64,000 nucleotides of DNA from Clostridia bacterium (GTDB lineage: Bacteria; Bacillota; Clostridia; Oscillospirales; CAG-272): contig JAFWYJ010000009.1 in assembly GCA_017517745.1 (NCBI GenBank), forward strand, positions 3,467 to 67,466, written 5' to 3'. This document shows, one piece after another, positions 9,343 through 43,338 of this stretch. Every line of letters begins with the position of its first letter. Positions within the stretch are counted from its first letter, which is position 1. Position numbers and translations under genes: made by a program. The notes below the pieces were generated by a model. It searched no databases, was not told the DNA's origin, and was given only the letters and a program-made list of their open reading frames with translations.

Positions 9343-10398
9343 ATGGACATTTCAAAGATCGACCGCAATTTTGCGCTTCCGGGACAGATCGAGCGCGACG
9401 ACGTGGTTTGGTATGATGCCGCAGAAGCCCCGTTCGTCATTTACGGCGCAACACAGACCAATCCCTACGCGCGCATGCCCAAGGAGATAGCGGAAAAGGT
9501 CAACGCGGGCGTCGCGCAGCTCTATGCAAACACTGCGGGTGTGCGCGCACGCTTTTGCACCGATTCTCCCTTCGTTGCCATTCGCGCCGAGTGGGACGCT
9601 TGGACGAAATTTGCTCACATGACGGCCGTGGGCGTCTGCGGCTTCGATCTGTATGCGGTTTGTGACGCCACGCATTGCCAAAGATATCTGCACACCTTCA
9701 TGCCATCCTCGTCTGGCAGTCAGAACGGCTTTGAGGGCTTGATGCCGGTCAAGGGCGAAATGAGCGATTACGTGCTGAATTTCCCGCTTTATAACAACGT
9801 CGACAAGCTTTATATCGGGGTGAAAGAGGGAAGTCGCTTTGAAGCCCCGATGGAATATTCCAATTCCTTACCTGCCGTGTTCTACGGCTCGTCGATCACG
9901 CAGGGCGGATGCGCCTCGCGCCCGGGTAATTGCTATCAAAACCATCTTTCTCGCGCCTTTGACATCGACTACGTCAACCTCGGCTTTTCGGGAAGCGGTC
10001 GCGGCGAGGATACGATCATCGAATATCTCGCGGGCTTGGAAATGTCGGCGTTCGTCTCGGATTACGATCACAACTCACCCTCTCCCGAGCATTTGGAACA
10101 AACGCACGAAAAGCTCTATCGCGCCGTGCGTGAAAAGCATCCCGACGTGCCGTACATCATGCTTTCGCGTCCCGACTACAGAGGCCGCGAGGAGGACGAT
10201 CGACGCCGCGCAGTGATCATGAAAACCTATCAAAATGCGATCGCAGCAGGAGATCGGAACGTCTATTTCGTTGACGGAGCTTCGATCTTCGCGGGAGATG
10301 CCTCGGACGCCTGCACGGTGGACGGAACACACCCCAACGATCTCGGATTTTACCGTTTCTTCAAGGCGCTGCAGCCGATTTTTGAGAAAATTTATTAA
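9343..10398 (+). CDS. SGNH/GDSL-family hydrolase
   Basis: Block I is FYGSSITQGGCAS, block III is GFSGSGRGE, and block V is DGTHPNDLGF. It is the last gene of the glycan operon. Confidence 0.75.
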   Translation: MDISKIDRNFALPGQIERDDVVWYDAAEAPFVIYGATQTNPYARMPKEIAEKVNAGVAQLYANTAGVRARFCTDSPFVAIRAEWDAWTKFAHMTAVGVCGFDLYAVCDATHCQRYLHTFMPSSSGSQNGFEGLMPVKGEMSDYVLNFPLYNNVDKLYIGVKEGSRFEAPMEYSNSLPAVFYGSSITQGGCASRPGNCYQNHLSRAFDIDYVNLGFSGSGRGEDTIIEYLAGLEMSAFVSDYDHNSPSPEHLEQTHEKLYRAVREKHPDVPYIMLSRPDYRGREEDDRRRAVIMKTYQNAIAAGDRNVYFVDGASIFAGDASDACTVDGTHPNDLGFYRFFKALQPIFEKIY

Positions 10399-10454
10399 AA
10401 AAAGTCCCTCTCAAGGGGTGACTTCCATAAAGCAGATTTACCTGCCGAAAAACA

Positions 10455-10490
10455 AAAAGGAGTACGGACGATTTGTTCGTACTCCTTTTC
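10455..10490 (+). terminator. rho-independent terminator of the glycan operon
   Basis: Stem GGAGTACG / CGTACTCC with an 11-nt loop, followed by TTTT. Confidence 0.6.
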
Positions 10491-10540
10491 ATACGCCTTG
10501 CCTTGCAAGGTATAGTGAGGTGTACTGTCGGGGAGGAAGA

Positions 10541-10661
10541 GCCTCCCTTGTGTAAAGGGAGGTGGCTTGCGAAGCAAGACGGAGGGATTGTAAAAGCAAA
10601 AATTTCATCGTAAAACAATCCCTCAGCCGCCTAACGGCGCCAGCTCTCCCAAAGGGAGAGC
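10541..10661. repeat. multi-hairpin palindromic repeat element, copy A
   Basis: GCCTCCCTTGTGTAAAGGGAGGTGGC...GACGGAGGGATTGTAAAAG...AAAACAATCCCTCAG...CAGCTCTCCCAAAGGGAGAGC. It shares its conserved cores with copy B at 40549-40672. Confidence 0.75.
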
Positions 10662-10744
10662 ATTTCTTGAAGTTCTTAACGAAATGACATTGCTCACGAG
10701 GGATTTTTCTTTATCTGAGGCGGCAGATTCATCAGAATCAAAGT

Positions 10745-11173
10745 TCACGCCGTATAATCCTGAATGAGTGACATCAATTCGCGCCACGAGCCAACCGTGA
10801 TGCCGACGCTCAATGCCTCGCGATCGGCGGGCGGAAGAGAATCGACCGACACCTCCAGCAAGCGCACGAGATAGCCGTCCGAAGTGAAAACGCCGATTTT
10901 TCCGTTGGCTTCCTTCAGACAAAAGGCTTCGGTGGGCGGGGGAGTCTGTGCGGACGAGTCTCCCATCGTAGGGAGCGAGTCGGAATCCGGTTGCTCCGTA
11001 TTGATATTTGCCAAACAAGCGCGTAACTCCTCGACCAACGCGTCGGTACTCTCCTTGAGAGCCGCGCTTTCGTCAACGGCGTTCCGCAGAGCGGTCAGTG
11101 AAGTGATCGAAAAGACCAGACAAACCAACAAAATCAAGGCACAGATTGCGGTCAAAATTTTTGAAGCATCCAT
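10745..11173 (-). CDS. membrane-anchored hypothetical protein (possible BofC-like C-terminal domain)
   Basis: The likely start MDASKILTAICALILLVCLVF forms a signal-anchor. The C-terminus is CLKEANGKIGVFTSDGYLVRLLEVSVDSLPPADREALSVGITVGSWRELMSLIQDY. It is divergent from the PBP1A gene. The domain call is tentative. Confidence 0.5.
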   Translation of the reverse strand: MDASKILTAICALILLVCLVFSITSLTALRNAVDESAALKESTDALVEELRACLANINTEQPDSDSLPTMGDSSAQTPPPTEAFCLKEANGKIGVFTSDGYLVRLLEVSVDSLPPADREALSVGITVGSWRELMSLIQDYTA

Positions 11174-11268
11174 AGTTTTGTTCCTCTCACATTTTTTTGC
11201 AGATTGGGTAATGATAGTTTTTCCTCGCCTTCTGTTTATATGCATGCTTGTGTGGAATAATAAGAAAA

Positions 11269-13695
11269 ATGGAGGTGGAAGCATTGAAAAAAAGGAGAAA
11301 AAAACTCCGAAGAGGTGTTTTTTGGAGAATTGCGACCTTCCTTTTTTTATTTTTTACGGTGGCTGTCATCGCGGGTGGCGTATGGCTCGCCGCATCCTTT
11401 GAACAAAAACTTCCCGATGATTTTTTTTGTCTGACGGCAAAAGGGGAGTCTCCCCGCTTTTTTGTCTATCATTTCGAGGACCGCGCCAACCGCATCGGTG
11501 AGGCGGAGGAGCTTTCCGCCGGAGGATTTGCGCAACAGGAGCGCGCTTGGGTGGCATATCCCGACCTCCCCCAGCATCTGATCGATGCATTTGTGTCGAT
11601 CGAGGACAAGCGGTTTTATCGGCACAACGGTGTGGATTGGTATCGCACGCTTGCGGCAAGCTCCAATCATCTGCTTGGCGGAGAACGGCGCTTCGGTGCC
11701 TCCACGATCACACAGCAGGTGGTCAAAAACGTCACGGGAAACAACGATGCCACCGTCAAGCGTAAGATTCAGGAAATCTTTTATGCGCTTGATCTTGAGC
11801 GGCAACTCGATAAAACACAGATTTTGGAAATCTATCTCAACGTCATTCCTTTTTCCGATAACTGTGACGGTATCGCGGCGGCTGCATCACACTATTTTTC
11901 CAAGACACCGCAGGAATTGACGGTTGCCGAATCTGCGACGATCGCCGCCATCACCAACAGCCCGACCTACTACAACCCAATCCGAAATCCCGAACACAAT
12001 CTCCAAAGACGCAATCTCATTCTTTCCGAAATGTACGCGCAGGGCGCGCTGAGTGAGAGTGCGTATCAAAGCGCGATCGCCGCGCCGTTGGGGCTGAATT
12101 TGGATCGGGAGAATGGGGAAGAGGGCATCAATTCGTGGTATATCGACATGGTGATCGAGGACGTGATCAACGATCTCGTCGCGCAGTACGGGATGACACG
12201 GGGCGCGGCATCCAATCTTGTCTATTCGGGCGGTTTGCGGATCGACGTGGCAATGGACGAAGAGATTCAATCCTTGGTCGAGGAATATTACCGCACCGCC
12301 ATCCGTCTGCCAACCAACCAAAACGGTGTCAGAGCGCAATCGGCGCTCATCGTGATGGATGCCGCCACGGGAGACATCCTCGGCGTTGCGGGCGCTGCCG
12401 GAGAGAAACGTGGCAACCGCGTGCAGAATTTCGCCACACAAACCAAGCGTCCGCCGGGTTCCGCGATCAAGCCGATCACGGTCTACGCCCCCGCGCTTGA
12501 GGCAAAACTGATCGATTGGGCGAGCGTCTACGATGACGTACCCGTCAATTTCGGAACGGGCGGAAGACTTCCGTGGCCCAAAAACGCCACCAACGTCTAC
12601 CGAGGACTCACCAACATCGCCTATGCCGTGGCACACTCCACCAATACCGTTCCCGTGCGGATTTTGGACGAGCTGGGCTTGGAGCACGCCTTTCGGAGCG
12701 CCAAAGAGCGGTTTCACCTCGAAAGTTTGGTTGATGCCGACCGCGACGTCGCCGCGCTGGCTCTCGGACAGTTGAATTTTGGTGTGACGTTGCGCGAGAT
12801 GACGGCGGCATACACCGTCTTTGCTGATGCGGGGATTTATCATCCTTGGCGATCTTATTATCGCGTGCTGGATTCCGACGGCGTCGTTTTGCTGGCGTGT
12901 CCCGATCGCGCCGACAGCGTGATGTCGACAGAAAATGCCGCGATCATGACCAAGCTTTTGCAGGGTGTGGTCGAGAGCGGAACCTCGTCTTCAATTACGC
13001 TCAACCGCATGGTCGAATGTGCGGGAAAGACGGGAACCACCAACCGCGATGGTGACCGATGGTTTGTCGGTTACACTCCCGACATGATTTGCGGCGTTTG
13101 GTGCGGTTACGAATTTCCCGAACCGCTGGAGGGGCGCAATCTTTGCACCGAGACCTGGAACCGCGTCATGAAGCGTATCGTTGAGAAAAAAGGGGGAAGA
13201 GAACACTTTGACGTTCCCTCGTCGATTGTGCGCGTCAGCTATTGCAAGGACAGCGGCAAGCTTCTCACCGATGCCTGCGAAGCCGATCCGCGCGGCAGCC
13301 GCACCGAGATCGGATGGTTTTTGGCGGATGACGTACCGAGGGATTTTTGCGACTGTCACGTGCTTTGCGACTATGACCGCGAGCACGGCGGCGTCTGTCA
13401 CGGCTACTGCCCGGAGGAATCGTGCGGGCAGGTGGGGCTGATCCGCGTCAATCGGCATTTTCCGATGCAGATCTACGTCAGCGACGCGCAATACGTCTAT
13501 GACGGAGATCCGGTTCAATACAGCCCCAACGAAAATCCCAACCAAGCTTATTATCAAAGTGCGAAAGAGGGCTGTTGCGGCATTTCGCACGCCGCCAAAC
13601 AATATAACCGCTCCTGTACGGAGCATCTGACACCTCCCCCCACAAAGGATTGGGAGTATCTCTTTCCCAAACTCCTGCCCACCGAACAGGAATAA
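11269..13695 (+). CDS. penicillin-binding protein 1A (bifunctional transglycosylase/transpeptidase)
   Basis: GT51 motifs are SIEDKRFYRHNGVD and GASTITQQ. Transpeptidase motifs are SAIKP (SxxK), HSTN and KTGTT. The start is uncertain because the RBS is weak. Confidence 0.9.
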   Translation: MEVEALKKRRKKLRRGVFWRIATFLFLFFTVAVIAGGVWLAASFEQKLPDDFFCLTAKGESPRFFVYHFEDRANRIGEAEELSAGGFAQQERAWVAYPDLPQHLIDAFVSIEDKRFYRHNGVDWYRTLAASSNHLLGGERRFGASTITQQVVKNVTGNNDATVKRKIQEIFYALDLERQLDKTQILEIYLNVIPFSDNCDGIAAAASHYFSKTPQELTVAESATIAAITNSPTYYNPIRNPEHNLQRRNLILSEMYAQGALSESAYQSAIAAPLGLNLDRENGEEGINSWYIDMVIEDVINDLVAQYGMTRGAASNLVYSGGLRIDVAMDEEIQSLVEEYYRTAIRLPTNQNGVRAQSALIVMDAATGDILGVAGAAGEKRGNRVQNFATQTKRPPGSAIKPITVYAPALEAKLIDWASVYDDVPVNFGTGGRLPWPKNATNVYRGLTNIAYAVAHSTNTVPVRILDELGLEHAFRSAKERFHLESLVDADRDVAALALGQLNFGVTLREMTAAYTVFADAGIYHPWRSYYRVLDSDGVVLLACPDRADSVMSTENAAIMTKLLQGVVESGTSSSITLNRMVECAGKTGTTNRDGDRWFVGYTPDMICGVWCGYEFPEPLEGRNLCTETWNRVMKRIVEKKGGREHFDVPSSIVRVSYCKDSGKLLTDACEADPRGSRTEIGWFLADDVPRDFCDCHVLCDYDREHGGVCHGYCPEESCGQVGLIRVNRHFPMQIYVSDAQYVYDGDPVQYSPNENPNQAYYQSAKEGCCGISHAAKQYNRSCTEHLTPPPTKDWEYLFPKLLPTEQE

Positions 13696-13743
13696 TCCGC
13701 GCCTCCGTCTCATAGAGTGAGAACAGGGAGAGGTGCGAAAAAA

Positions 13744-13769
13744 CAGCACCTCGCGGGAGGTGCTGTTTT
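13744..13769 (+). terminator. rho-independent terminator after PBP1A
   Basis: CAGCACCTC-GCGG-GAGGTGCTG followed by TTTT. Confidence 0.65.
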
Positions 13770-13791
13770 GCATAAGAGAAAATACGGGAAA

Positions 13792-14301
13792 ATGACGGTG
13801 AGCGCATGGCTGAACTCCGAAATGGAGCAGTCCAATCCCATCGTGATGGTGGTGATCGGCGTGCTTTTGACGATCGTCGCGTTGCTTGTGCGCGCGGGGG
13901 TGGGAAGTCCCTATGAAACCATTCACGCCATGGGGATCGCCGAGATCATTCCGCCGGTTTGGATCATGACGCTCTTGTGGACGCTTTCTTTTTTGATCGT
14001 GGGATGCGCCGCGGGATTTGTGCTTGCTTTTCGCACTTGCGGACGTGACACCGAAAAGTATCGCGGCGGAATGTTCTTCGTTTTGCTGGCGGTCCTGGAG
14101 ATCTGCTGGTATCCGCTTTTCTTCGGCGCACACCTTGTTTTTTTGAGCGCGCTTGCCTCGATCCTCATCCTCTGCCTGGCGCTCACGGTGACCTTTTCGT
14201 TTTACCGCGTCACAAAATTCGCGGGAATGCTGCTTTTGTTGCACGACGTTTGGCTGGTCTATATGCTCATTCTCAATTTCGCCGTCCTGTTTCGGGCGTG
14301 A
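13792..14301 (+). CDS. TspO/MBR-like membrane protein
   Basis: Five hydrophobic helices. TspO-like motifs are IPPVWIMTLLWTLSFLIVGCA and CWYPLFFGA. The start was chosen downstream of the terminator hairpin. Confidence 0.55.
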   Translation: MTVSAWLNSEMEQSNPIVMVVIGVLLTIVALLVRAGVGSPYETIHAMGIAEIIPPVWIMTLLWTLSFLIVGCAAGFVLAFRTCGRDTEKYRGGMFFVLLAVLEICWYPLFFGAHLVFLSALASILILCLALTVTFSFYRVTKFAGMLLLLHDVWLVYMLILNFAVLFRA

Positions 14302-14345
14302 AAAAAGGGCTGCCTCAAGCAATGAGGCAGCCCAACTTTTTTTGA
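14301..14345. terminator. bidirectional terminator between the TspO-like gene and nadE
   Basis: GGGCTGCCTCA-AGCAA-TGAGGCAGCCC, flanked by an A-run upstream and a T-run downstream. Confidence 0.7.
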
Positions 14346-14359
14346 TTTTTTCGGAAGGA

Positions 14360-16291
14360 TTACAGTTCGTCAATCTCCGCCAGCCAGAGGGCGGAGCAGG
14401 CGTCGGAGGGCATACACCACGCGCCGCGAGGTGAGAGCGAGACCGAGCCGACCGCGGGGCCGTCCGGCGAGCAGGAACGCTTGAATTGCTGCGCGAAGAA
14501 TCTGCGGAAGAATACGCGAAGCCATTTTTTCAGCGTTTCGTCATCGTAGACGTCGCCCAAGGCGTGCTTCGCCATGCGATAAAGCTTTGCGGGCGAGAAG
14601 CCGTAGCGCAGCGCATAGTAGAGATAGAAATCGTGAATTTCGTAAGGTCCGACCAGATCCTCGGTCTTTTGCGCGATTTCGCCGTTTTCATTGGCGGGAA
14701 GCAGCTCGGGAGAGACGGGAGTGCCGAGAACGTCACGAAGGGCGGCGGCGATCTTGTTTTTGCCATCGGCATCGTAAAGATCGGCGCAGTGGGAAACGAG
14801 GTGGCGGACAAGCGTTTTGGGGATCGAGGCATTGACGCCGTACATCGACATATGGTCGCCGTTGTAGGTTGCCCAGCCGAGCGCCAGCTCGGAGAGGTCA
14901 CCCGTACCGATCACCATACCGCCGCAATCGTTTGCGACGTCCATCAAAACCTGTGTGCGCTCACGCGCCTGTGCGTTTTCGTAGGTCACGTCACGCTGTT
15001 CGGGATCGTGTCCGATGTCACGGAAATGCAGATTGACCGCGTCGAAAATATCCACGCAGCGGAAATCCACACCAAGCTCCTCGCAAAGCACGGTGGCGTT
15101 GGTTTTGGTACGCTTGGTCGTGCCGAAGCAGGGCATGGTGACCGCGATGATATCCGTTCTCGGACGTCTGAGCGCATCCATCGCGCGGACCATCACAAGG
15201 AGTGCCAGCGTCGAATCCAATCCACCGGAGATGCCGAGGACGATCTTTTTTGCAAAGGCACGCTCAATTCTTGCCTTGAGACCCTCGGTTTGGATCGCGA
15301 GAATGCGATCGCAACGGCGGATTCGCTCGTCACGGTCAGCCGGGAGGAAGGGCGAGGGGGCAATGCTTCTTGTCAGGGTTGTTTCGGAGAGTGTAAACGA
15401 GAAACAATCCAAATGAGTTCTCATCTCGCAAGGCGTCGCGGGTGCGCGGCGGCGCTCACCAAGCACAAGATCGAGATCGATCTCACTTACCACCATGGAA
15501 TCGGCAGTGTCAAACGGCGCTTTTTCGGCAAGCAGCTTACCGTTTTCACAGATCATGGAGTGACCGCCGAACACCGTGTCGGTGGTCGACTCTCCTGTGC
15601 CGGCGTTGGCGTAAAGATATCCGCAAACCGTGCGTGCCGATTGCGAAAGAACCATCGCGCGTCGAAATTCCTCGCGTCCGACACGCTCGGCATCGGCAGC
15701 GGGAGCGCAGATCAGCGTCGCACCTTCCGCAGTGTACGCGACAGAGGGCGGGTTGGGAAGCATGCATTCGCTTCCGAATTCCACGGCAATGCGCAGAGAA
15801 TCCATATTTTCGCAGGCAAAGATCATGTGAGTGCCAAAAGAAACCTCCATATCGCCAAGGCTCAACGTGTCTCCCAAAAACAATGCATCCGGAACGGCGA
15901 AGTAACGTGCCTCGGAGGAATCCTTGGCGTTTTGCAAATGGGTTTTGGGAACGATGCCCAAAATCTCGCCCCCGCAACAGACAGCCGCGCAATTATAAAG
16001 CTTTCCGTTGTAAGCGAGCGGCAATCCCACAACAGAGAGCAACTCCAGGTCGGCGGTCTTGGAAAGATAGTGCATCAGTGCTTCCTTTGCGCCTCTGATC
16101 AGCGTTTCGGAAAAAAACAGATCGCCGCAGGTGTATCCCGTCAGGGAAAGCTCCGGGAAAACCAGCACGCGCACGCCGCGCTTGTCGGCATCCTTTGCGA
16201 TGCGGATCAGCTCATTCGCGCAAAAAGCGGGATCGGCAATGCGCACGTCGGGACTTGCGACGGCGACCTTCAAAAAACCGTGTTTCATCAT
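14360..16291 (-). CDS. nadE: glutamine-dependent NAD+ synthetase
   Basis: N-terminal CN-hydrolase domain (VLVFPELSLTGY) and C-terminal NAD synthetase domain with the PP-loop GISGGLDST. Confidence 0.9.
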   Translation of the reverse strand: MMKHGFLKVAVASPDVRIADPAFCANELIRIAKDADKRGVRVLVFPELSLTGYTCGDLFFSETLIRGAKEALMHYLSKTADLELLSVVGLPLAYNGKLYNCAAVCCGGEILGIVPKTHLQNAKDSSEARYFAVPDALFLGDTLSLGDMEVSFGTHMIFACENMDSLRIAVEFGSECMLPNPPSVAYTAEGATLICAPAADAERVGREEFRRAMVLSQSARTVCGYLYANAGTGESTTDTVFGGHSMICENGKLLAEKAPFDTADSMVVSEIDLDLVLGERRRAPATPCEMRTHLDCFSFTLSETTLTRSIAPSPFLPADRDERIRRCDRILAIQTEGLKARIERAFAKKIVLGISGGLDSTLALLVMVRAMDALRRPRTDIIAVTMPCFGTTKRTKTNATVLCEELGVDFRCVDIFDAVNLHFRDIGHDPEQRDVTYENAQARERTQVLMDVANDCGGMVIGTGDLSELALGWATYNGDHMSMYGVNASIPKTLVRHLVSHCADLYDADGKNKIAAALRDVLGTPVSPELLPANENGEIAQKTEDLVGPYEIHDFYLYYALRYGFSPAKLYRMAKHALGDVYDDETLKKWLRVFFRRFFAQQFKRSCSPDGPAVGSVSLSPRGAWCMPSDACSALWLAEIDEL

Positions 16292-33296: not shown

Positions 33297-34673
33297 ATGT
33301 TAGAAATTTCTTCCAAAACCAACCTGTTAGAGCAAAAAAGCTATAAGTATTCGTTGCAGGACGTTTCGGAGCCGAATCTGTACCGCGACGTTTATCCTTA
33401 TACCGACGTGCCGCGCATCGCGTTCAACCATCGCCGCGTGCCGATCGGAATGCCCGAGGATATCTGGATCACCGACACCTCCTTCCGTGACGGACAGCAG
33501 TCGGTCGAGCCCTATACCGTCAAGCAGATCGTCGATCTCTTCAAGCTGATGTCGCGCTTGGGCGGTCCTTACGGCATCATTCGTCAGACCGAATTTTTCG
33601 TATATAGCCAAAAGGACAGGGAAGCGGTGGCGCAGTGCCAGGATCTCGGCTTGAAATTCCCCGAGATCACCACTTGGATCCGCGCGAGCAAGGAGGACTT
33701 CAAGCTGGTTCGCGACCTCGGCATCCGCGAGACGGGTATTCTGGTCTCCTGCAGTGACTATCACATCTTCAAAAAGATGAAAATGACGAGAAAGCAGTGC
33801 ATGGAGTATTATCTTGCCACGGTTGCAGAGGCATTTGAAGCGGGCGTCATGCCGCGTTGCCACCTGGAGGACATCACGCGTGCCGATTTCTACGGCTTCG
33901 TCGTGCCGTTTGTCAACGAACTGATGAAGATGTCGGCGGATGCCAAGATCCCGGTGCGTATTCGTGCCTGTGACACGATGGGCTACGGTGTTCCGTACCC
34001 CGAGGTCGCCATTCCGCGAAGCGTTCCCGGCATCATTTACGGTCTGCAGCACTATTCCGACGTTCCCAGTGAAATGCTGGAGTGGCACGGACACAACGAC
34101 TTCTACAAGGCGGTCACCAACGCGACCACCGCATGGCTCTACGGCGCTTGCGGCGTCAACTGCTCGCTCCTGGGCATCGGTGAGCGCACGGGTAACGTGC
34201 CGCTGGAGGCGATGGTCTTCGAGTATGCGGGCATCCGCGGCTCTCTTGACGGCATGGATACCACCGCGATCACCGAAATCGCGGATTACTTCAAATATGA
34301 GATGGGATACAACATCCCGCCCATGACGCCCTTCGTCGGAAAGAGCTTCAACGTCACTCGCGCGGGCATTCATGCCGACGGACTGCTCAAGGACGAGGAG
34401 ATCTATAATATCTTTGACACCAAAAAGATTCTCAACCGTGCGGCGTCGGTGTTGCTCGGAAAGACCTCCGGACTTGCGGGAATTGCCTATTGGATCAACG
34501 AAAACTACCGTCTGTCGCCGGACGAAGCGGTTGACAAGAGAGATCCGTTGGTCATCTCGCTCAAGGAGTGGATCGACAAGGAATATGAGGGCGGCAGACA
34601 GACCTCGCTCTCGGTTGGCGAAATCGAGGAAAAGATCGAAGAGCTTTCCGGAAATCGCTTTTCAAGACTTTGA
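33297..34673 (+). CDS. homocitrate/isopropylmalate-synthase-family enzyme, candidate Re-citrate synthase
   Basis: ATG at 33297 follows GGAGGA. It has the DRE-TIM metallolyase motif ITDTSFRDGQQS and is 458 aa. It is the first gene of an operon with aconitase and isocitrate dehydrogenase. The 560-aa ORF in the track is an upstream overextension. Confidence 0.65.
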   Translation: MLEISSKTNLLEQKSYKYSLQDVSEPNLYRDVYPYTDVPRIAFNHRRVPIGMPEDIWITDTSFRDGQQSVEPYTVKQIVDLFKLMSRLGGPYGIIRQTEFFVYSQKDREAVAQCQDLGLKFPEITTWIRASKEDFKLVRDLGIRETGILVSCSDYHIFKKMKMTRKQCMEYYLATVAEAFEAGVMPRCHLEDITRADFYGFVVPFVNELMKMSADAKIPVRIRACDTMGYGVPYPEVAIPRSVPGIIYGLQHYSDVPSEMLEWHGHNDFYKAVTNATTAWLYGACGVNCSLLGIGERTGNVPLEAMVFEYAGIRGSLDGMDTTAITEIADYFKYEMGYNIPPMTPFVGKSFNVTRAGIHADGLLKDEEIYNIFDTKKILNRAASVLLGKTSGLAGIAYWINENYRLSPDEAVDKRDPLVISLKEWIDKEYEGGRQTSLSVGEIEEKIEELSGNRFSRL

Positions 34674-34696
34674 AGGAACCAAAGGAGACGGACGAA

Positions 34697-35350
34697 ATGA
34701 TTGAACATAGAACAGTATCCTTGGCGGAGCAGGTGTTTGACCGCCTGGAGACCGATATTCTTTCGGGAAAATATCAGCAGGGAGAAATTTTGACCGAGCT
34801 GAAGCTGGTTGCCGACCTCGGTGTCAGCCGTACGCCCATTCGCGAGGCGTTGCGCCGCTTGGAGCAGGAGCATATCATTGAAAACTCTTCCAAGGGGATC
34901 GTGGTGCTGGGTGTGAGCAAAAAGGATTTGGAGGATATTCTGGAGATCCGTATTCGCATCGAGGGCTTGGCGGCAGCGATGGCGGCACAGCGCATTACTG
35001 ACGAAGAGCTTGCGGAGCTGCGCGAGACGATCGAGCTGCAGGAATTTTACGTTCCCAAGCATGATGCCGATCGCATCAACGGCATGGACAGCAAATTCCA
35101 TTTGCTCATTTACCGTTTTTCGGGAAGCGTTCCGCTTTATGACACGCTGGTTCCGTTGCACAAAAAGGTGTTGAAATATCGCAAAGCATCGGTCGAAAAC
35201 GAGGTTCGCTCCACACATTCCTCGCAGGAGCATCGCGCGATCTTTGAAGCGATCGCCAAACACGACGCGCCTCTGGCAGAGGAACTGATGAGAGCGCACA
35301 TCGCAAACGCAAAGGAATATATTCAAAACAAAGACAAGGGGAACGATTGA
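34697..35350 (+). CDS. GntR-family (FadR/FCD-type) transcriptional regulator
   Basis: wHTH region LTELKLVADLGVSRTPIREALRRLEQEHII followed by a helical FCD-like C-terminus. RBS is AAAGGAG. Confidence 0.85.
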   Translation: MIEHRTVSLAEQVFDRLETDILSGKYQQGEILTELKLVADLGVSRTPIREALRRLEQEHIIENSSKGIVVLGVSKKDLEDILEIRIRIEGLAAAMAAQRITDEELAELRETIELQEFYVPKHDADRINGMDSKFHLLIYRFSGSVPLYDTLVPLHKKVLKYRKASVENEVRSTHSSQEHRAIFEAIAKHDAPLAEELMRAHIANAKEYIQNKDKGND

Positions 35351-35351
35351 C

Positions 35352-37283
35352 ATGGGACTTACCATTGCACAAAAAATCATCAAGGCGCACCTGATCGGCG
35401 GAGAAATGACGGTCGGCAGTGAGATCGCCCTGAAAATTGATCAGACGTTGACACAGGACGCCACGGGAACCATGGCGTATCTCGAATTCGAGGCCATGGG
35501 CATTGACCGCGTCCGTACCGAGCGCAGCGTGGCTTATATCGATCACAACACCCTGCAATCGGGATTTGAGAACGCCGATGACCACCGCTTCATTCAGTCG
35601 ATTGCGAAGAAGCACGGCATCTATTTTTCGCGTCCCGGCAACGGCATTTGCCATCAGGTACATCTGGAGCGCTTCGGGATTCCCGGAAAGACGCTCATCG
35701 GCTCGGACAGCCACACCCCCACGGGCGGCGGAATCGGTATGCTCGCGTTTGGCGCGGGCGGACTTGATGTCGCGGTCGCCATGGGCGGCGGCGCGTACTA
35801 TATCACCATGCCCAAGATGATCAAGGTCAACCTCACGGGCAAGCTCCGTCCCTTCGTCACCGCGAAGGACGTCAGCCTGGAGATTTTGCGGATCCTCTCG
35901 GTCAAGGGCGGCGTCGGCTCGATCATCGAGTGGGGCGGCGAGGGCATCAAGACACTCTCTGTTCCCGAGAGAGCCACCATCACCAACATGGGAACCGAGC
36001 TGGGCGCGACCACCTCGATCTTCCCGTCCGATGAGATCACGCGTGATTTCCTGCGCGCAGAGGGCAGAGAAGCCGATTTCGTGGCATTGGAAAGTGATGC
36101 CGATGCGGTTTATGACCGTGTGATCGACATCGATCTTTCGACGCTCAAGCCGCTGATCGCTTGTCCTCACAGCCCCGATAACGTGGTCACCGTCGAGAGT
36201 TTGAAGGGCACCAAAGTCGATCAGGTCTGCATCGGTTCTTGCACCAACTCCTCGCTTTTGGATATGCTCAAGGTCGCCGCTCTCCTCAAGGGCAAGACCA
36301 TCAAGCCCGAGGTCAGCCTGTCGATCTCTCCCGGATCCAAGCAGGTGCTTTCCATGCTTTCCGAGTGCGGTGCGCTCACCGACATTCTCGCAAGCGGCGC
36401 GCGTGTACTCGAATGTGCGTGCGGTCCTTGCATCGGCATGGGCTTCTCGCCCAACTCCGCGGGTGTGAGCCTCCGTACCTTCAACCGTAACTTTGAGGGC
36501 AGAAGCGGAACCGCCGATGCCAAGGTCTATCTGGTTTCTCCCGAGACGGCGGTTGCCGCCGCGCTGACGGGTGAGATCACCGACCCCATTCTCTTGGGTG
36601 AGATGCCCAAGATCGAAATGCCCAAGGCATTCCGCATCGATGACAGCGCTGTCATCGCGCCCGCGCCCGTTGAGGAGGCTAAAGATCTGGAAATTCTGCG
36701 CGGTCCCAACATCAAGAAATTCCCCGATTGCCACCCGCAAGAGGATGCGATCCGTGCTGAGCTGGTTTTGAAGGTTGGAGATAATATCACCACCGACCAC
36801 ATCATGCCCGCGGGTGCGAAGATCCTGCCTTACCGCTCCAACATTCCTTTCCTGTCGCAGTATTGCTTTGGCGTTTGCGACAAGACCTTCCCCGAAAGAG
36901 CCAAGGCGGCGGGGAAGAGCATCGTGGTTGGCGGCTCGAACTATGGACAGGGCTCCTCGCGTGAGCATGCGGCGCTCGTTCCGCTTTATCTCGGCGTGCG
37001 TGTCGTCATCACCAAGAGCTTTGCGAGAATCCACGTTGCCAATCTGATCAACGCCGGCATCATGCCTCTGACCTTTGCCGATCCCGCGGATTATGATAAG
37101 GTCAAGGAGGGCGATATGCTCTCGATCGACGGCGTCTGGGCGGGCATGGACAGCGGAAGCATGACGCTTTGCAACGAAACGACCGGCGAGAAGATCGCGC
37201 TTGTTTGCAGCTTTACCGAGCGTCAGAAGGCGATTCTGAAGGCGGGAAGCCTGCTTGCTTACACGGGAGAACAGCTCAATTGA
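35352..37283 (+). CDS. acn: aconitate hydratase (about 640-aa type)
   Basis: Fe-S ligand motifs are CIGSCTNSS and [11 protein letters not shown]. The swivel domain has [15 protein letters not shown]. It starts 2 nt after the GntR stop. Confidence 0.9.
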
Positions 37284-37305
37284 GCTTGAACAGAGGAGAA
37301 AGACC

Positions 37306-38523
37306 ATGAAAAAAATAGAAATGAAAACACCGCTGGTCGAGATGGACGGCGACGAAATGACGAGAATCCTTTGGCAGATGATCAAGGACGAGCTGCTTTT
37401 GCCGTTCGTCGATCTGAAAACCGAATATTACGATCTCGGCTTGCCCGAGAGAGAAAAGACCAAGGACCGGGTTACCTTTGATTCGGCGTATGCCACGCAG
37501 AAATACGGCGTTGCCGTCAAGTGTGCCACCATCACGCCCAACAAGCAGCGCGTGGAGGAATATAACCTCTCCGAGATGTGGAAGAGCCCCAACGGAACCA
37601 TTCGCGCCATTCTCGACGGCACTGTGTTCCGCGCGCCGATCCTCATCGACAGCATCCGTCCCGCCGTCCGCAATTGGAAAAAGCCGATCACGATCGCGCG
37701 TCACGCTTACGGAGACATCTACAAGGCAACCGAGTACCGCGTTCCCACGGAGGGCAAAGCAGAGTTGGTTTATACCGACAAGGACGGCAAGGAGACCTTC
37801 CGTCAGACGGTTTACGATTTTGAGTGTGCCGGCGTTCTGCAGGGAAGCTACAACAAGGATTCTTCGATCCGCTCCTTCGCGCACTCCTGCTTCCAATACG
37901 CACTCAACACCAAGCAGGATCTTTGGTTCTCGACCAAGGATACCATCTCCAAGCAGTACGATCAGACCTTCAAGCTGATCTTCCAGGAGATCTATGACAA
38001 CGAATACAAGGAAGCGTTCGAGAAGGCGGGAATTACCTATTTCTACACCCTGATCGACGACGCGGTCGCGCGCGTCATCCGCAGTGAGGGCGGCTTTATC
38101 TGGGCTTGCAAGAATTACGACGGCGACGTCATGAGCGACATGGTTTCTACCGCGTTCGGATCTCTTGCCATGATGACCTCGGTTCTGGTCTCTCCCGACG
38201 GAAAGTTTGAGTACGAGGCGGCACACGGCACGGTTACGCGCCACTATTACCGCTATCTCAAGGGCGAGGAGACCTCGACCAACCCCATGGCGACGATCTA
38301 CGCATGGTCGGGCGCGCTTCGCAAGAGAGGCGAGCTTGACGGGCTGGATGAGCTGGTCAACTTTGCCGATCAGCTGGAGGCGGCGTGCATCGACACCCTC
38401 AATCAGGGAGTCATGACCAAGGACCTTGTCGGACTCGTTGTGGAGGGAACCGAGACCACCTCGGTCAATTCCCGCGATTTCATCGTTGCGATCCGCAAGA
38501 ACCTCGAAAAAAGACTTGCATAA
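37306..38523 (+). CDS. icd: NADP-dependent isocitrate dehydrogenase (about 400-aa eukaryote-like subfamily)
   Basis: [26 protein letters not shown]...KCATITPN...[11 protein letters not shown]. Confidence 0.9.
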
Positions 38524-38527
38524 AAAC

Positions 38528-38574
38528 AAAAAATCCCTGACGGTTAAGGCGCGTGTTCTTAAGGACAGTTTTTG
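38528..38574. repeat. left inverted repeat bracketing the low-GC cassette
   Basis: AAAAAATCCCTGACGGTTAAGGCGCGTGTTCTTAAGGACAGTTTTTG is the imperfect reverse complement of 40709-40754. Confidence 0.75.
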
Positions 38575-38684
38575 AAATTCAATAGAATATGTCACCTACC
38601 GACAGGAAAAGGACGAAGAGATATAAAACTCCTCGTCCTCTTTTCTTTTCAGACCCTGCATTTGTAGATACAAATACTTCTATG

Positions 38685-38713
38685 TAGACTAATTCACAAT
38701 TTTATGATATAAT
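38685..38713 (+). promoter_or_regulatory. sigma-A-like promoter of the sigma-fusion gene
   Basis: TAGACT (38685-38690), 17-nt spacer, TATAAT (38708-38713). Confidence 0.45.
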
Positions 38714-38778
38714 ATTTTTAATAATCTTGTCAGCAAACTGAGAAATGCCACACTATATGGGTGAAAGGAGGCGAGAAA

Positions 38779-40443
38779 ATGCAGGAAACGAACAAAATGC
38801 GCGATCAACTAATCAACGAGTTTGCCGAGAACTATATGGAAAAGCTGTTTTATTTCTGCTTAAAAAAGACTGGTAGCCATATTGAAGCAGAAGATTTAAC
38901 GCAGGATATCGCACTTCAGATCATCACGGCTTTGAACAAAAGCACGATCCCAACGAGTTTTTCAGCGTGGGTATGGCAGATTGCGCGTAACCGTTATTCC
39001 GTATGGGCAAAAGAAAAGCATAATCGAAACGAATCGGTAACCGGTTCCGATATCGGAGATTATGAGATCGAGGACGAAAGCGAAAATATCCTTGATGAAA
39101 TGATACATACAGAGCAAATGGCTCTGCTTCGGCGGGAGCTGGCATTCATCAAAAGTGATTATCGCAATATAGTCGTTGCCTATTACATAGAGAATAAGAG
39201 CGTTCGTGACATTGCATCATCGCTGTCACTTTCCATAAGCTCGGTTCAGCAAAGACTTCACCGTGCAAGAATCATATTGAAAGAAGGTATGAATATGGCA
39301 AGAGAATTTGGAAAATTAAGCTATAATCCCGAAAATATTGCATTTTGGGTTAATGGGTTACATGGGGCAAATGGCGCACCCAGAATTTATGTTTCGCGTT
39401 CTCTCAGCAAAAACATTATGCTTGCAGCATATAGAACACCTGCAACGGCAGAAGAACTTGCAATGGAGTTGGGAGTAGCTCTTCCGTATATGGAAGAAGA
39501 ACTATCTACACTTGTAGATGCTACATTGATGAAGAAAAATGGCAATAAATACGAAACCAACATTTTTATTGTGAGTGCGGAAGCACAAGAAAAGATTTTT
39601 GCACATGTGCGTGGGATTGCTCCTGAGCTTACAAAGGCGATTATTGACACGATGGAGTATAATATTGAGTGGTCAAACAAAAATGCACCTAATTGGCATG
39701 AAGGTTATCAAAGCTATGAGGATATGAATTGGGCGCTTCTTATGATCGAAGCTGATAACGTATCTTTTGATACCCTTAAGCCTTTTAAGAAAAACGCCAA
39801 AGATGTTCCTAATATTGGTCCATGGGGACATACTATCCGTCCTAATGGTGGCGAATGGGATTTGCTTGGTATGGAAATCCATCACGGCGATGAGCCCAAA
39901 CATGTGGGTCTTAGCGGATGTGTTTCATGCCCCAACGAAAAGGATTTGCCCGAAATTATGTTCCGTCAATTCCGCTTCAAGTATTGCGGAATTGAAAATC
40001 GCACACCACCGGTTCTTACCTATGCGGACGGGCAAGCAATGGTTGCGGTTGCCGAGGGCAAGAGCGCAGATATTGATAAATCTATTCTAAACAGATTAGA
40101 ATCTTATGGATATATCAAAAAGACTGATGATGGTTATATTCCCGCCATTATGGTTATGCGCAAAAACAAATCAAGCAAAATGCCAAAGGAGATACGAGAA
40201 CAATTTGAGGCGCTTCGCCATAAAGCAACGGAAATAGCGACTCGCCACTATTTGTTCTGCCGAGAACAGATTTATAAAGAAATTCCCGAATTCTTGAAAG
40301 AGGATGAATTTCAAATCGATCACGCTTGCGTTAACATTTTTTCAATGCGCGGCGCGGTCTTGGAAGAAGCTATCAGACAAGGCTATTTAACCTTTGACAA
40401 GGATAACAACAAACAGATGTTGGGGGCTTATTTGGTAATATAA
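38779..40443 (+). CDS. ECF-type sigma-70 family factor fused to a soluble C-terminal domain of about 380 aa with unknown function
   Basis: ATG at 38779 is 7 nt after AAAGGAGG. Region 2 is EDLTQDIALQI...FSAWVWQIARNRY. Region 4 is YRNIVVAYYIENKSVRDIASSLSLSISSVQQRLHRAR. It is 554 aa with no TM segment seen. Confidence 0.8.
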   Translation: MQETNKMRDQLINEFAENYMEKLFYFCLKKTGSHIEAEDLTQDIALQIITALNKSTIPTSFSAWVWQIARNRYSVWAKEKHNRNESVTGSDIGDYEIEDESENILDEMIHTEQMALLRRELAFIKSDYRNIVVAYYIENKSVRDIASSLSLSISSVQQRLHRARIILKEGMNMAREFGKLSYNPENIAFWVNGLHGANGAPRIYVSRSLSKNIMLAAYRTPATAEELAMELGVALPYMEEELSTLVDATLMKKNGNKYETNIFIVSAEAQEKIFAHVRGIAPELTKAIIDTMEYNIEWSNKNAPNWHEGYQSYEDMNWALLMIEADNVSFDTLKPFKKNAKDVPNIGPWGHTIRPNGGEWDLLGMEIHHGDEPKHVGLSGCVSCPNEKDLPEIMFRQFRFKYCGIENRTPPVLTYADGQAMVAVAEGKSADIDKSILNRLESYGYIKKTDDGYIPAIMVMRKNKSSKMPKEIREQFEALRHKATEIATRHYLFCREQIYKEIPEFLKEDEFQIDHACVNIFSMRGAVLEEAIRQGYLTFDKDNNKQMLGAYLVI

Positions 40444-40548
40444 ATTTTATCGCCGAGGGTAACCGTTTGGTCGCTCTCGGCGGTCTCTTTTTATTTCGCA
40501 CAACCACTTCCGGTGGTGAGTAAGTGCGCACTTACAGACAAACAAAAA

Positions 40549-40672
40549 GCCTCCTTTGTGTAAAGGGAGGTGGCACGGCAACGCCGTGACGGAGGGATTG
40601 TAAAAGTTAGATTTGACCAAAAACAATCCCTCAGTCAGCTTCGCTGACAGCTCCCTTTACACAAGGGAGCCT
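40549..40672. repeat. multi-hairpin palindromic repeat element, copy B
   Basis: GCCTCCTTTGTGTAAAGGGAGGTGGCACGGCAACGCCGTGACGGAGGGATTGTAAAAG...AAAACAATCCCTCAGTCAGCTTCGCTGACAGCTCCCTTTACACAAGGGAGCCTC. The flanks CAGACAAACAA / TTGTTTGTCT extend the palindrome. Confidence 0.75.
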
Positions 40673-40708
40673 CTGGCTGTAGTTGTTTGTCTTTCTGATA
40701 TAGTGTTA

Positions 40709-40754
40709 CAAAAACTGTCCTTTAGAACCCAAAGCCTAACCGTCGGGGATTTTT
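40709..40754. repeat. right inverted repeat bracketing the low-GC cassette
   Basis: CAAAAACTGTCCTTTAGAACCCAAAGCCTAACCGTCGGGGATTTTT pairs with 38528-38574. Confidence 0.75.
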
Positions 40755-40784
40755 ATACGGTGAAAAATTTTATTCAATGAAAAG

Positions 40785-40816
40785 GGAAGGCTGCGTTCGC
40801 AAGAACGCAGCCTTCC
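40785..40816 (-). terminator. terminator of pck
   Basis: Perfect 14-bp stem GGAAGGCTGCGTTC / GAACGCAGCCTTCC with loop GCAA, followed on the - strand by CTTTTC. Confidence 0.7.
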
Positions 40817-42615: not shown

Positions 42616-42891
42616 GGGTCTTTCTCCTTTATGAATAAGTAATTTTTTATTTGTTAAAATTGAGACAAAGATGACAAGCCAACTTATCACCCATTATATA
42701 TTTTACACGCTTTTTCTTTCATTTTCAAGAGACTTTTGAAAAGGTTACGATTTGTTCATAATTTTCGACAAAAATGCAAGACTAAAATCAAAAGATGAAG
42801 GAAATCCTTCAAAAAACTTGCAAAAAAGCCTTTTCAAAACCGATGTTTTATGATATAATGAGATCAGTTGCGAAGGAAGGAGGGGACGGAT

Positions 42892-43338
42892 ATGCAAAAA
42901 TTGAACACAAAAGAAAAAGCGATCATGGATGCGATCGAGGATTCGATCGCGAAAAGCGGCTTTGCCCCGAGCGTGAGAGACCTTTGCCGGATGCTGGGGT
43001 ATCGGAGCACCTCGACGGTGCAGATGTATCTGAACCGATTGGAGGACTACGGCTATATCCGCCGTGAGGACGGCAAAAGTCGTTCGATCTCCCTTTGCCG
43101 CGAAAACGCAAGGCCTTGTCGGATTCCTTTGCTGTGTGCCGATGCACCGCTCGACGCCCCGTTGTACGAGACTTTCATTGAGAAAACACTCGATTTTTGT
43201 TATTGCGGCGACCTTCCCGTCGATGCCGAGATTTTCGCGCATCATCTGCCGTCGAAGGAGACGAACGAGGTGGCTGTCGTCCTTCGCCAAAAAGGGGAAA
43301 AAGAGTTGCGCCGGCTTGCCGTCTTCATGCTCTTTTGA
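42892..43338 (+). CDS. LexA-like repressor with intact N-terminal DNA-binding domain and degenerate/truncated S24 region
   Basis: SGFAPSVRDLCRMLGYRSTSTVQMYLNRLEDYGYIRRE aligns with the LexA wHTH. It is 148 aa. It has no Ala-Gly cleavage site, no GDSM serine motif and no catalytic Lys region. Confidence 0.7.
   Translation: MQKLNTKEKAIMDAIEDSIAKSGFAPSVRDLCRMLGYRSTSTVQMYLNRLEDYGYIRREDGKSRSISLCRENARPCRIPLLCADAPLDAPLYETFIEKTLDFCYCGDLPVDAEIFAHHLPSKETNEVAVVLRQKGEKELRRLAVFMLF

Follow-up and report, generated by a model that had tools for sequence, protein, structure and literature searches.

A candidate autoregulated ECF-type sigma factor with a fused double-winged-helix module on a putatively mobile cassette of gut Clostridia

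How is an extracytoplasmic function (ECF) sigma factor kept in check when no anti-sigma gene lies beside it and its own chain runs on for several hundred residues? This question is raised by the gene at positions 38779-40443 of a stretch of 64,000 nucleotides from a Clostridia bacterium (contig JAFWYJ010000009.1), here called the window. The original prediction, made without database searches, proposed a self-contained sigma factor with a built-in sensory or inhibitory module. The reading that we favour is an autoregulated ECF-type sigma factor whose fused module would replace an anti-sigma factor as regulator or sensor in cis, and whose gene would travel as a mobile insulated cassette. We judge the chances of this reading to be evenly balanced. 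The mobile, autoregulated nature proposed for the cassette changes the biological reading compared with the first account, which had not remarked on the low GC of the gene, the 56-nt inverted repeat that encloses it or its two predicted promoters. Features are collected in Table 1, and related loci are cited by L numbers.

Sigma head, family and C-terminal module

The reading frame is open from 38761 or 38779 to 40443 on the forward strand. A Shine-Dalgarno sequence, AAAGGAGG, is found 7 nt upstream of the ATG at 38779 and the public homologues retrieved by a word-indexed search with the tail are 554 residues long, so that 38779 is the likely start. The head is built from sigma-2 (residues 1-88), an acidic linker of 27 residues (89-115) and sigma-4 (116-177). 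Region 2 (residues 17-72) matches PF04542 (Sigma70_r2) with E 7.8e-9 and 35.7 bits against a cutoff of 24, and region 4 (residues 125-164) matches PF08281 (Sigma70_r4_2) with E 2.8e-9 and 36.9 bits against 25.7. TIGR02937 (sigma70-ECF) scores 82.5 bits in the NCBIfam scan, with a cutoff of 42.9; no Pfam match to Sigma70_r3 or Sigma70_r1 is observed in the protein. The window protein therefore scores above the domain thresholds of the ECF (group 4) sigma-70 family, in agreement with the original prediction, which had placed regions 2 and 4 of an ECF-type sigma factor in the first ~175 residues. The solved structure closest to the head is Bacillus subtilis SigW (5wuq, E 2e-11), and Foldseek aligns the head with SigL, SigH and SigE at about 1e-4. 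The SigW, SigM, SigX and SigV equivalogs and subfamilies of NCBIfam all score far under their curated cutoffs, the top specific scores being 69.4 bits for TIGR02950 (SigM subfamily, cutoff 148) and 65 bits for SigW NF007223 (cutoff 209). Sigma-4 carries a net charge of +5.

The protein belongs to a large family. The tail-only search returns 531 proteins, of which the best 120 are 77-100% identical and nearly all 554 residues long; their source annotation is merely 'sigma-70 family RNA polymerase sigma factor'. Exhaustive HMMER searching of 1.84 billion cluster representatives gives 616 clusters at E<=1e-3, of which 237 pass <=1e-10 and 83 pass <=1e-30. Full-length matches, down to 27% identity, almost always measure 520-560 residues, with the module starting at residue 173-185. 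When one genome per species was scanned, the family was found in the genomes of at least 572 species, essentially all of them metagenome-assembled genomes of gut and rumen Clostridia (Oscillospiraceae, Eubacteriales, Ruminococcus). A distant cultured member, WP_013483710 (512 residues), is encoded on plasmid pRUMAL02 of Ruminococcus albus 7 and is the only plasmid-borne member found. No full-length match is present in 50,697 phage records and only the sigma head matches in PHROGs (phrog_1740), and a phage-encoded sigma factor is rejected on these grounds. PADLOC assigns no defence-system membership. No paper describing this family was found in our literature search.

The family also argues against an artificial fusion. 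The original prediction had named a joining of two reading frames, for example by a sequencing frameshift, as what would undo it, and this is refuted by the more than 600 clusters and at least 572 species genomes. A frameshift, fusion or assembly artefact is rejected, as the same 520-560-residue layout recurs in hundreds of independent assemblies and clusters. Pairwise ratios of nonsynonymous to synonymous substitution (dN/dS) are 0.02-0.3 in every domain (0.02-0.2 in the sigma head), which means purifying selection on head and tail and across the junction; no diversifying selection on the tail is seen by this measure. The junction is itself among the best conserved stretches, and we give the artefact next to no probability. 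Only in L024 was a split copy seen, apparently a pseudogene.

Several loci carry two or three tandem paralogues. Even for a tandem second gene with 18% tail identity, hhalign finds homology along the whole module (98.4% probability, E 5e-15). In many loci a divergent second paralogue (about 18-35% identity) is located directly downstream of the main family gene. Those listed in Table 1 have their own P1 and P2-like promoters with -10 boxes CGACTATAT or GCACTATAA, which suggests that sigma cassettes of differing specificity occur in pairs or arrays.

The C-terminal module is predicted by AlphaFold, when modelled by itself, as a single compact domain with a predicted local distance difference test score (pLDDT) of 93.5 and a predicted template modelling score (pTM) of 0.89. 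A beta-strand is followed by a first winged helix (wH1, residues 208-265), two long helices (267-336), a beta-sheet region (352-400) holding an RPxGGxWD motif, a second winged helix (wH2, 415-460), a helical bundle (470-533) and a last strand. Both winged helices, read by eye in the original prediction, are predicted with high confidence. They are related to each other: residues 241-295 (wH1 and the next helix) align with 436-490 (wH2 and its helix) in hhalign with a probability of 82% and E 1e-5. In the full-length model (pLDDT 87.7, pTM 0.69) sigma-2 is confident and the linkers 89-123 and 171-182 have low confidence.

No described domain is found in the module. Pfam, NCBIfam, PHROGs and PADLOC give nothing over threshold, the Pfam scan of 44 family tails gives winged-helix-type matches only, all of them sub-threshold, and a profile of the module has no match among PDB sequences. 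Foldseek against PDB (full-length model and module alone) and BFVD gives significant matches for the sigma head only, with a best E of 0.06 and query-normalised TM scores of <=0.18 for the module. Only single winged helices align in Foldseek and Pfam, namely those of ArsR/SmtB, IclR, IdeR and TrmB-type proteins, O-methyltransferase dimerisation domains, SelB and RPC62. There is no structural analogue of the whole module among PDB and BFVD. The earlier opinion that the extension is neither SnoaL-like nor of TPR type, and cannot be assigned, holds: neither SnoaL nor TPR is matched by Pfam in the window protein or the 44 tails, and the predicted fold is a mixture of winged helices, helices and beta-strands and not a series of all-helical repeats. 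The module is also soluble, as had been stated. Its highest 19-residue Kyte-Doolittle value is 0.79 (family maximum 1.57), no transmembrane helix is present, and a transmembrane anchor is rejected.

The module is acidic: its net charge is -10 in the window protein, and the median of the family is -14. The charge is neutral to acidic in both winged helices, whose third or 'recognition' helices, YMEEEL and ILNRLESY, are acidic or hydrophobic rather than basic. Because of this charge and of these helices, protein-protein contacts would be favoured over DNA binding. In an alignment of 61 sequences the mean identity to the window protein is 49% for sigma-2, 57% for sigma-4, 56% for the junction with wH1 (residues 173-266) and 29-32% for the remainder. 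The best kept stretches include the junction, EGMxMAREFGKxSYxPE, and a motif of wH1, NPSTAEELAxELGVALPYMEDEL. Other conserved motifs are QxYEDxKWxLLM, TxRPxGGxWD with an invariant Trp360, FVGxHG and RGxVxEEALxxGYL. The invariant positions of the module are N, G, I, W and L, and no acidic or catalytic residue is invariant. The His/Cys cluster at residues 368-384, HHGDEPKHVGLSGCVSCP, is present as first reported and does not match the zinc-binding anti-sigma (ZAS) motif. It is lineage-specific, and this part of the earlier idea did not stand: His368 is mostly Tyr in the family, His369 mostly Asp, His375 mostly Phe and Cys384 mostly a gap, Cys381 is kept in 26 of the 61 sequences, and no Cys or His is invariant. 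A zinc, redox or metal site at this cluster, whether of the ZAS or the CorE type, is rejected.

The absence of an anti-sigma gene, noted at first for the locus, extends to 86 related loci. The sigma gene is monocistronic between two convergent genes, isocitrate dehydrogenase icd (+) and GTP-dependent phosphoenolpyruvate carboxykinase pckA (-), identified from Pfam annotation of identical proteins, and the spacers hold no credible small reading frame. No anti-sigma domain (class I, zf-HC2, RskA, DUF4179) is matched by Pfam in the tail. Neighbour clustering of 86 related loci reveals no anti-sigma gene or conserved neighbour; just scattered XRE-HTH and ABC-transporter genes without a fixed position are observed.

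Predicted promoters P1 and P2

Two predicted promoters precede the gene (Table 1), and their conservation was followed in the aligned upstream regions of 68 family genes. The sigmaA-type P1 is found upstream of most family genes, not all. The ECF-type P2 is present in all aligned genes at a fixed distance before the Shine-Dalgarno sequence, with the consensus aAAAAnnnnTG[TC][CA][AC][GC]CAAAT..AAA..GCCACACTATATGG. An A-rich tract upstream of its -35 box is conserved, and no conserved motif beyond the -35 and -10 boxes and this tract is seen in the aligned regions. A position weight matrix of P2, scanned over both strands of the 86 loci and the window (975 kb), gives 78 matches above 12 bits, and all 78 lie directly upstream of family genes. 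The original prediction had proposed a search for a promoter motif at the gene itself and elsewhere; P2 is indeed found upstream of the gene, and it is the single match in the window. As no P2-type promoter other than the family's own is found near family genes or in the window, the regulon of the family sigma factor is not local. A scan with the core motif over the 975 kb and the whole window likewise gives only the family's own promoters or chance matches, and the promoter pattern gives chance matches only in IMG/VR.

The -35 box of P2 varies together with the protein. Its heptamer classes track the recognition helix of sigma-4 in about 60 of 63 sequences: TGTCAGC goes with the helix S-A-VQQRLH, TGCACCC with NTVKSRLL, TGCAACC with NTVKSRLF, TGTAACC with VKQRLF and TGTCCCC with VKKRLY. 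Paralogues within one array are often of different classes. The -10 box is CACACTATAT in the window clade and CGACTATAT in deep paralogues. The deep paralogues and the R. albus gene have promoter versions of the form AACC...CGACTATAT or AACC...GCATTATA, which we take to resemble classical ECF promoters with AAC at -35 and CGxx at -10. Promoters of group 4 sigma factors are group-specific and usually autoregulated, with an AAC-type -35 and a CGT- or CGA-type -10. Because the -35 box covaries with the helix that would read it, the simplest reading of the P2 data is positive autoregulation, probably with several orthogonal specificity classes.

The region between P2 and the Shine-Dalgarno sequence is interrupted in some members. 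A short hairpin-like insert of the form AAAGC...GCTTTTC is observed there in L005 (5985-6000), L006, L017, L052 and L055, and L040 has a tandem array of CATTTCAATGAAAAGCAA units. Lying past the putative transcription start and ahead of the ribosome-binding site, such inserts may modulate translation.

Cassette and its surroundings

The gene with its promoters behaves as a unit in locus comparisons. The segment 38685-40484 is found with 92-94% DNA identity in L002, L004 and L080, with unrelated neighbours. In L080 and L081 the copy is part of a mobilisable element and has TnpV, an XRE regulator, a relaxase, ParB_N and AbiH next to it; the L082-86 copies have CotJ/Mn-catalase genes on one side and rsmE on the other. 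Neither icd nor pckA is nearby in any of 79 genome loci, and most family copies sit among housekeeping genes, not in defence islands. The composition also differs, with a GC fraction of 0.39-0.45 over 38400-40800 vs 0.53-0.59 in the neighbours. No transposase or recombinase is encoded between 38556 and 40727, where the sigma gene is the only family-supported reading frame. The sequence comparisons are consistent with a horizontally moving, insulated cassette.

The L080 island deserves a description of its own. It covers L080:1-7400 and 9716-15538, with SIR2-like, SLFN/AlbA_2-HATPase, LexA-like S24 peptidase, TnpV, relaxase, ParB_N and AbiH genes, and is a mobilisable element with defence-type cargo.

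Heads and tails have recombined, as judged from their divergence. The tail of the window gene (residues 173-554) is 98-99% identical in DNA to those of L080, L002 and L004. In the same comparisons the promoters, sigma-2 and sigma-4 reach only 77-88% identity and fall in a different -35/sigma-4 class. Compared with L003, synonymous divergence (dS) is about 1.2 in sigma-2 and 0.15-0.3 in the tail. The opposite is also seen: many paralogues have promoters and heads that are 80-88% identical and tails with only 44-50% amino-acid identity. The apparent breakpoints lie at the conserved junction (about residues 172-187) or within wH1.

The two sides of the unit carry hairpins. The upstream terminator-like hairpin is kept with compensatory changes in L001, L006, L036, L066 and L085 and would shield the gene against transcription running on from icd. 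The 3' terminator is 85-95% identical even beside diverged tails and is also found between tandem copies (L004, L005, L035, L045, L059). Further out, a 56-nt inverted repeat (38529-38584 and 40699-40754) brackets the gene. Locus comparison resolves it into two layers, inner terminal repeats that cassettes of different genomes have in common and outer arms specific to each locus. The left terminal repeat also occurs upstream of family genes in L001, L006, L036, L066 and L082-86, in different contexts, and the cassette ends carry TTCTWAAGGACAGTTTT; many family members are wholly without terminal inverted repeats. The outer arms are complementary within each of three loci (Table 1), differ between the loci and are bounded by an A-run and a T-run. 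Joined by an arbitrary loop, the window arms fold with -28 kcal/mol (z -7.6). Because the rejoined locus-specific arms fold like a typical bidirectional terminator, we infer that they were formerly the shared icd/pckA terminator and that the loop of a host hairpin now holds the cassette. Before insertion this hairpin would have read AAAAAATCCCTGACGGTTA-loop-TAACCGTCGGGGATTTTT.

Table 1. Coordinates of the gene, its promoters and the proposed cassette; positions refer to the window unless an L number is given.
Feature	Position	Strand	Basis
Coding sequence, sigma factor with fused C-terminal module, 554 aa	38779-40443	+	ORF call, homologue length, domain matches, AlphaFold
ECF sigma head, aa 1-177	38779-39309	+	Pfam, NCBIfam, PDB, Foldseek matches
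C-terminal module, aa 183-554, 372 aa	39325-40440	+	AlphaFold, hhalign internal repeat
P1, sigmaA-type promoter: TAGACT, 17 nt, TG-n-TATAAT (extended -10)	38685-38713	+	consensus scan, 10/12 matches plus TG
P2, family-specific ECF-type promoter: -35 TGTCAGC, AAAC...GC, -10 CACACTATAT	38728-38759	+	position weight matrix, 47.4 bits
Putative left half of split host palindrome: A-run then TCCCTGACGGTTA	38525-38546	+	complementary to 40737-40749
Left terminal inverted repeat TTCTTAAGGACAGTTTT	38556-38572	+	inverted repeat, locus comparison
Terminator-like hairpin with T-run, upstream of P1 and P2	38604-38650	+	-18.8 kcal/mol, z -3.0
3' intrinsic terminator	40449-40493	+	-24.5 kcal/mol, z -5.5
Nested palindromic repeat, MITE-/REP-like	40540-40680		-67.8 kcal/mol, z -7.3
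Right terminal inverted repeat TTCTAAAGGACAGTTTT	40711-40727	-	inverted repeat, locus comparison
Putative right half of split host palindrome: TAACCGTCGGGGA then T-run	40737-40754	+	repeat, fold
Outer arms, window: left TCCCTGACGGTTA, right TAACCGTCGGGGA	38525-38546 with 40737-40754
Outer arms, L082-86: left GGACGAGAA, right TTCTCGTCC	L082:7750-7776 with 9954-9985
Outer arms, L066: left TCCGTACACGTA, right its complement	L066:5760-5787 with 7857-7885
Divergent downstream paralogue, same sigma and module layout	L003:7799-9430
Divergent downstream paralogue, same layout	L007:4755-6374
Divergent downstream paralogue, same layout	L029:7800-9476
Divergent downstream paralogue, same layout	L035:3374-5044

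Between the 3' terminator and the right end lies a palindromic repeat of ~125-140 nt with a three-way palindromic fold. It is present in the cassettes of the window and of L082-86 and not in those of L009 or L050. Free copies are found at L004:12001-12127, L013:3682-3814 and L050:5688-5818, and one arm at window 10539-10561. No Rfam family is found in the cassette spacers, this repeat included. It looks like an optional passenger of the type of miniature inverted-repeat transposable elements (MITEs) or repetitive extragenic palindromic (REP) sequences.

Two familiar kinds of mobile unit were considered and rejected. An autonomous insertion sequence (IS) or transposon would need its own transposase, and neither that gene nor conserved catalytic residues in the tail are found. 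An integron cassette is a promoterless reading frame with an attC site, held in an array by the intI integrase and attI. The present gene has two promoters of its own, no integrase occurs among the neighbour clusters, and the sole attC-like trait is the conserved 3' hairpin that also stands between tandem copies.

The window flanks were also inspected. The interval 33300-38523 upstream of the cassette looks like an operon of the oxidative branch that leads from acetyl-CoA to 2-oxoglutarate, with genes for an HMGL-like enzyme (of the citramalate, homocitrate or Re-citrate synthase type), aconitase, isocitrate dehydrogenase and a GntR/FCD regulator. The cassette seems to have split the terminator that this operon originally had. 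In the gap between pckA and glmM (42868-43338, +) a LexA-like protein of about 148-156 residues is encoded; it has the DNA-binding domain only (PF01726, from the identical L088 protein), without the S24 peptidase domain.

Competing readings and known systems

We propose the following mechanism for the favoured reading. Basal transcription from P1 would keep the sigma factor at a low level, and the active sigma factor would drive its own P2 in a positive feedback. Its activity would be gated by the fused acidic double-winged-helix module in place of a separate anti-sigma factor. The module might hold sigma-2 and sigma-4 inactive until a cytoplasmic ligand or protein binds, or it might be required for productive holoenzyme formation, as in ECF41 and ECF42. 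A fused regulatory or sensor extension as in these two groups is the most likely role of the module in our analysis, and the model of an extension that modulates sigma in cis is borrowed from the ECF groups with fused extensions. Indirect hints of a sensory or inhibitory role are the acidic module with its non-basic 'recognition' helices, the purifying selection on it and a tail that varies more than the head. The conserved junction and wH1 would serve as an adaptor to the sigma head and the variable remainder as the input-specific part. The unit of terminator, P1, P2, gene and terminator would move horizontally as an insulated cassette into the loops of host terminator hairpins, and cassettes would exchange promoters and sigma heads against tails by recombination. 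In this proposal the architecture, its conservation in the family, the P2 motif with its exclusive location, its pairing with sigma-4, the mosaic genes and the changing genomic context are observed, whereas autoregulation, a regulatory module, insertion in terminator loops and the mechanism of movement are inferred.

Several observations weigh against this proposal. Within +/-6-8 kb of the 86 loci and in the 64-kb window, no target promoter besides the family's own is found. Three recombinant exceptions (L001, L010, L045) break the pairing of -35 box and sigma-4, and physical linkage of the two, which are ~450 bp apart, could partly account for their association. Free recombination of heads and tails opposes a tight co-adaptation of the two, save where the conserved junction and wH1 connect them. 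The full-length model gives sigma-4 with moderate confidence only, and its linker 171-182 has pLDDT <50. A ligand-binding pocket or known sensor fold is not recognised by fold, profile or Pfam searches. Finally, the empty insertion site was not recovered. An exact-pattern scan of metagenome contigs for it gives 0 matches, all contigs with identical isocitrate dehydrogenase or PEP carboxykinase carry the cassette or break at it, and relatives of the carboxykinase at <=80% identity are without icd synteny. The contigs with identical isocitrate dehydrogenase stop 281 nt after icd, inside the conserved 5' part of the cassette, as expected of a repeat that breaks assemblies.

The gene could instead encode a takeover or toxic sigma factor of mobile elements, a selfish or defence-type device comparable to SigN of plasmid pBS32. 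A phage, DNA damage or the state of the element would then be sensed by the tail as a trigger, positive feedback at P2 would overproduce the sigma factor, and this would outcompete the housekeeping sigma for core RNA polymerase (RNAP), leading to growth arrest or redirected transcription and not to a classical stress regulon. SigN has the same layout of a sigmaA-type and an autoregulatory promoter and is intrinsically toxic by competing with SigA (PMC6751061, PMC10601692). The near-identical copies on the mobilisable element with TnpV, relaxase, ParB, AbiH, SIR2 and SLFN-type genes, the insulating terminators on both sides, the several paralogues and tandem arrays per genome, and the restriction of P2-type promoters to the family itself all agree with such a device; the last point refers to the 975 kb scanned, as non-self targets were sought only in about 1 Mb of local sequence. 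However, PADLOC has no match, the family is absent from the phage collections searched, the selection is purifying and not that of an arms race, and most copies have housekeeping neighbours instead of defence islands. We therefore regard a takeover device as unlikely.

The two winged helices invite a different thought, that the module is an extra DNA-binding unit. It would read a promoter element further upstream, or act as an activator or repressor tethered to the sigma head. The weak similarity to ArsR/SmtB, IclR, IdeR and TrmB-type regulators and the conserved A-rich tract before P2 would fit. Against this stand the acidic charge and non-basic third helices, comparable matches to the winged helices of O-methyltransferase dimerisation domains, which do not bind DNA, the lack of a further conserved promoter motif, and tails that are highly variable while the promoters are near constant, so that DNA binding is improbable. 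Even less can be said for a module that serves the mobility of the cassette, for instance as a recombination directionality factor or as a guide to terminator hairpins, with the head there for expression control only. The cassette has no other gene yet occurs in many contexts with defined ends, and 9 of the 44 members have weak matches to TTRAP ('transposon-transfer assisting protein'). These matches are far under threshold, the invariant residues are not acidic or catalytic, many members have no inverted repeats and the acidic surface is unsuited to DNA binding; this explanation is very improbable. Autoregulation with control in cis remains our preferred reading. It may be carried further, with more doubt than belief on our side, to plug-in sigma circuits: terminator-insulated and self-activating, they would insert in host terminator hairpins without disturbing operons, spread among gut Clostridia and combine shuffled orthogonal specificity heads with new sensor tails, the output being either a regulon in trans or a SigN-type takeover of RNAP. 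If this is true and the output is takeover, the family would represent a novel class of selfish or defence-related element with a sigma factor at its core.

Whichever holds, control of transcription by ECF sigma factors that have a fused extension and no anti-sigma factor is recognised and little studied. With >600 clusters the family is large, and it adds an extension type of undescribed structure from gut and rumen Clostridia, which are abundant and poorly studied. Its at least five apparently orthogonal -35/sigma-4 classes are open to direct test and would be of use for synthetic biology. A sigma factor that moves horizontally as an insulated cassette would be unusual for such a regulator and raises the question of its role in a new host, and the locus may be a further case of mobile DNA directed to terminator hairpins. 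The cultured carrier R. albus 7 makes experiments feasible.

A comparison with known ECF groups places the family beside those with fused C-terminal extensions. These include ECF41, ECF42 and ECF56/SigG1 and, in the ECF 2.0 classification, ECF205, 238, 263, 264, 287, 288, 294 and 295 (PMC7826278, PMC3426412). The main text of PMC7826278 names SnoaL-like, TPR, Cys-rich, DUF1835 and multi-transmembrane extensions, and the extension type of the window protein is not among the groups of that main text. The family shares with these groups a minimal core of sigma-2 and sigma-4, a conserved soluble extension, the absence of a cognate anti-sigma gene and a group-specific promoter motif. Its extension is not SnoaL_2, unlike those of ECF41, 56, 294, 295 and 205, and not TPR, unlike that of ECF42; unlike ECF238, 287 and 288 it has no conserved Cys/His motif, and the ZAS motif HxxxCxxC is also absent from the family. 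With ~370 residues, two related winged helices and additional helical and beta parts, the extension is not DUF1835 or transmembrane either. The family further differs from the fused-extension groups in its restriction to gut Clostridia, the lack of a conserved neighbouring target gene, and its apparently mobile, terminator-insulated cassette with shuffling of heads and tails. To our knowledge, only the SnoaL and TPR extension types have been examined experimentally.

By sequence, the head is closest to SigW, SigM and SigX of B. subtilis. These are proteins of about 160-190 residues with a membrane anti-sigma factor encoded downstream, whereas the window gene has a fused module and no anti-sigma gene. 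The P2 variants TGCAAC and TGTAAC at -35, together with CGAC at -10 in the deep paralogues, presumably resemble their TGxAAC...CGxx promoters. With SigN (ZpdN) of B. subtilis pBS32 the family has in common a sigma factor on a mobile element and the pairing of a sigmaA-dependent promoter with an autoregulatory one, predicted in the family, which gives positive feedback in SigN (PMC6751061, PMC10601692). In contrast, LexA controls SigN, and the window family is chromosomal in most loci and is not known to be toxic. We know of no C-terminal module in SigN comparable to that of the family.

Elements that target palindromes or terminators include IS1397/ISKpn1-type elements that enter REP loops, the IS1111 group and class C group II introns, and MITEs can carry passenger genes. 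The cassette resembles them in its short terminal inverted repeats, its apparent insertion in the middle of a hairpin bounded by A- and T-runs and, as in non-autonomous elements, the lack of an internal transposase; no direct target-site duplication is recognised. Taken against all these systems, an ECF sigma factor with an extension and without an anti-sigma factor is of a known kind and the double-winged-helix extension is an undescribed type, and the most surprising parts are the proposed biology of a mobile cassette and the modular specificity heads.

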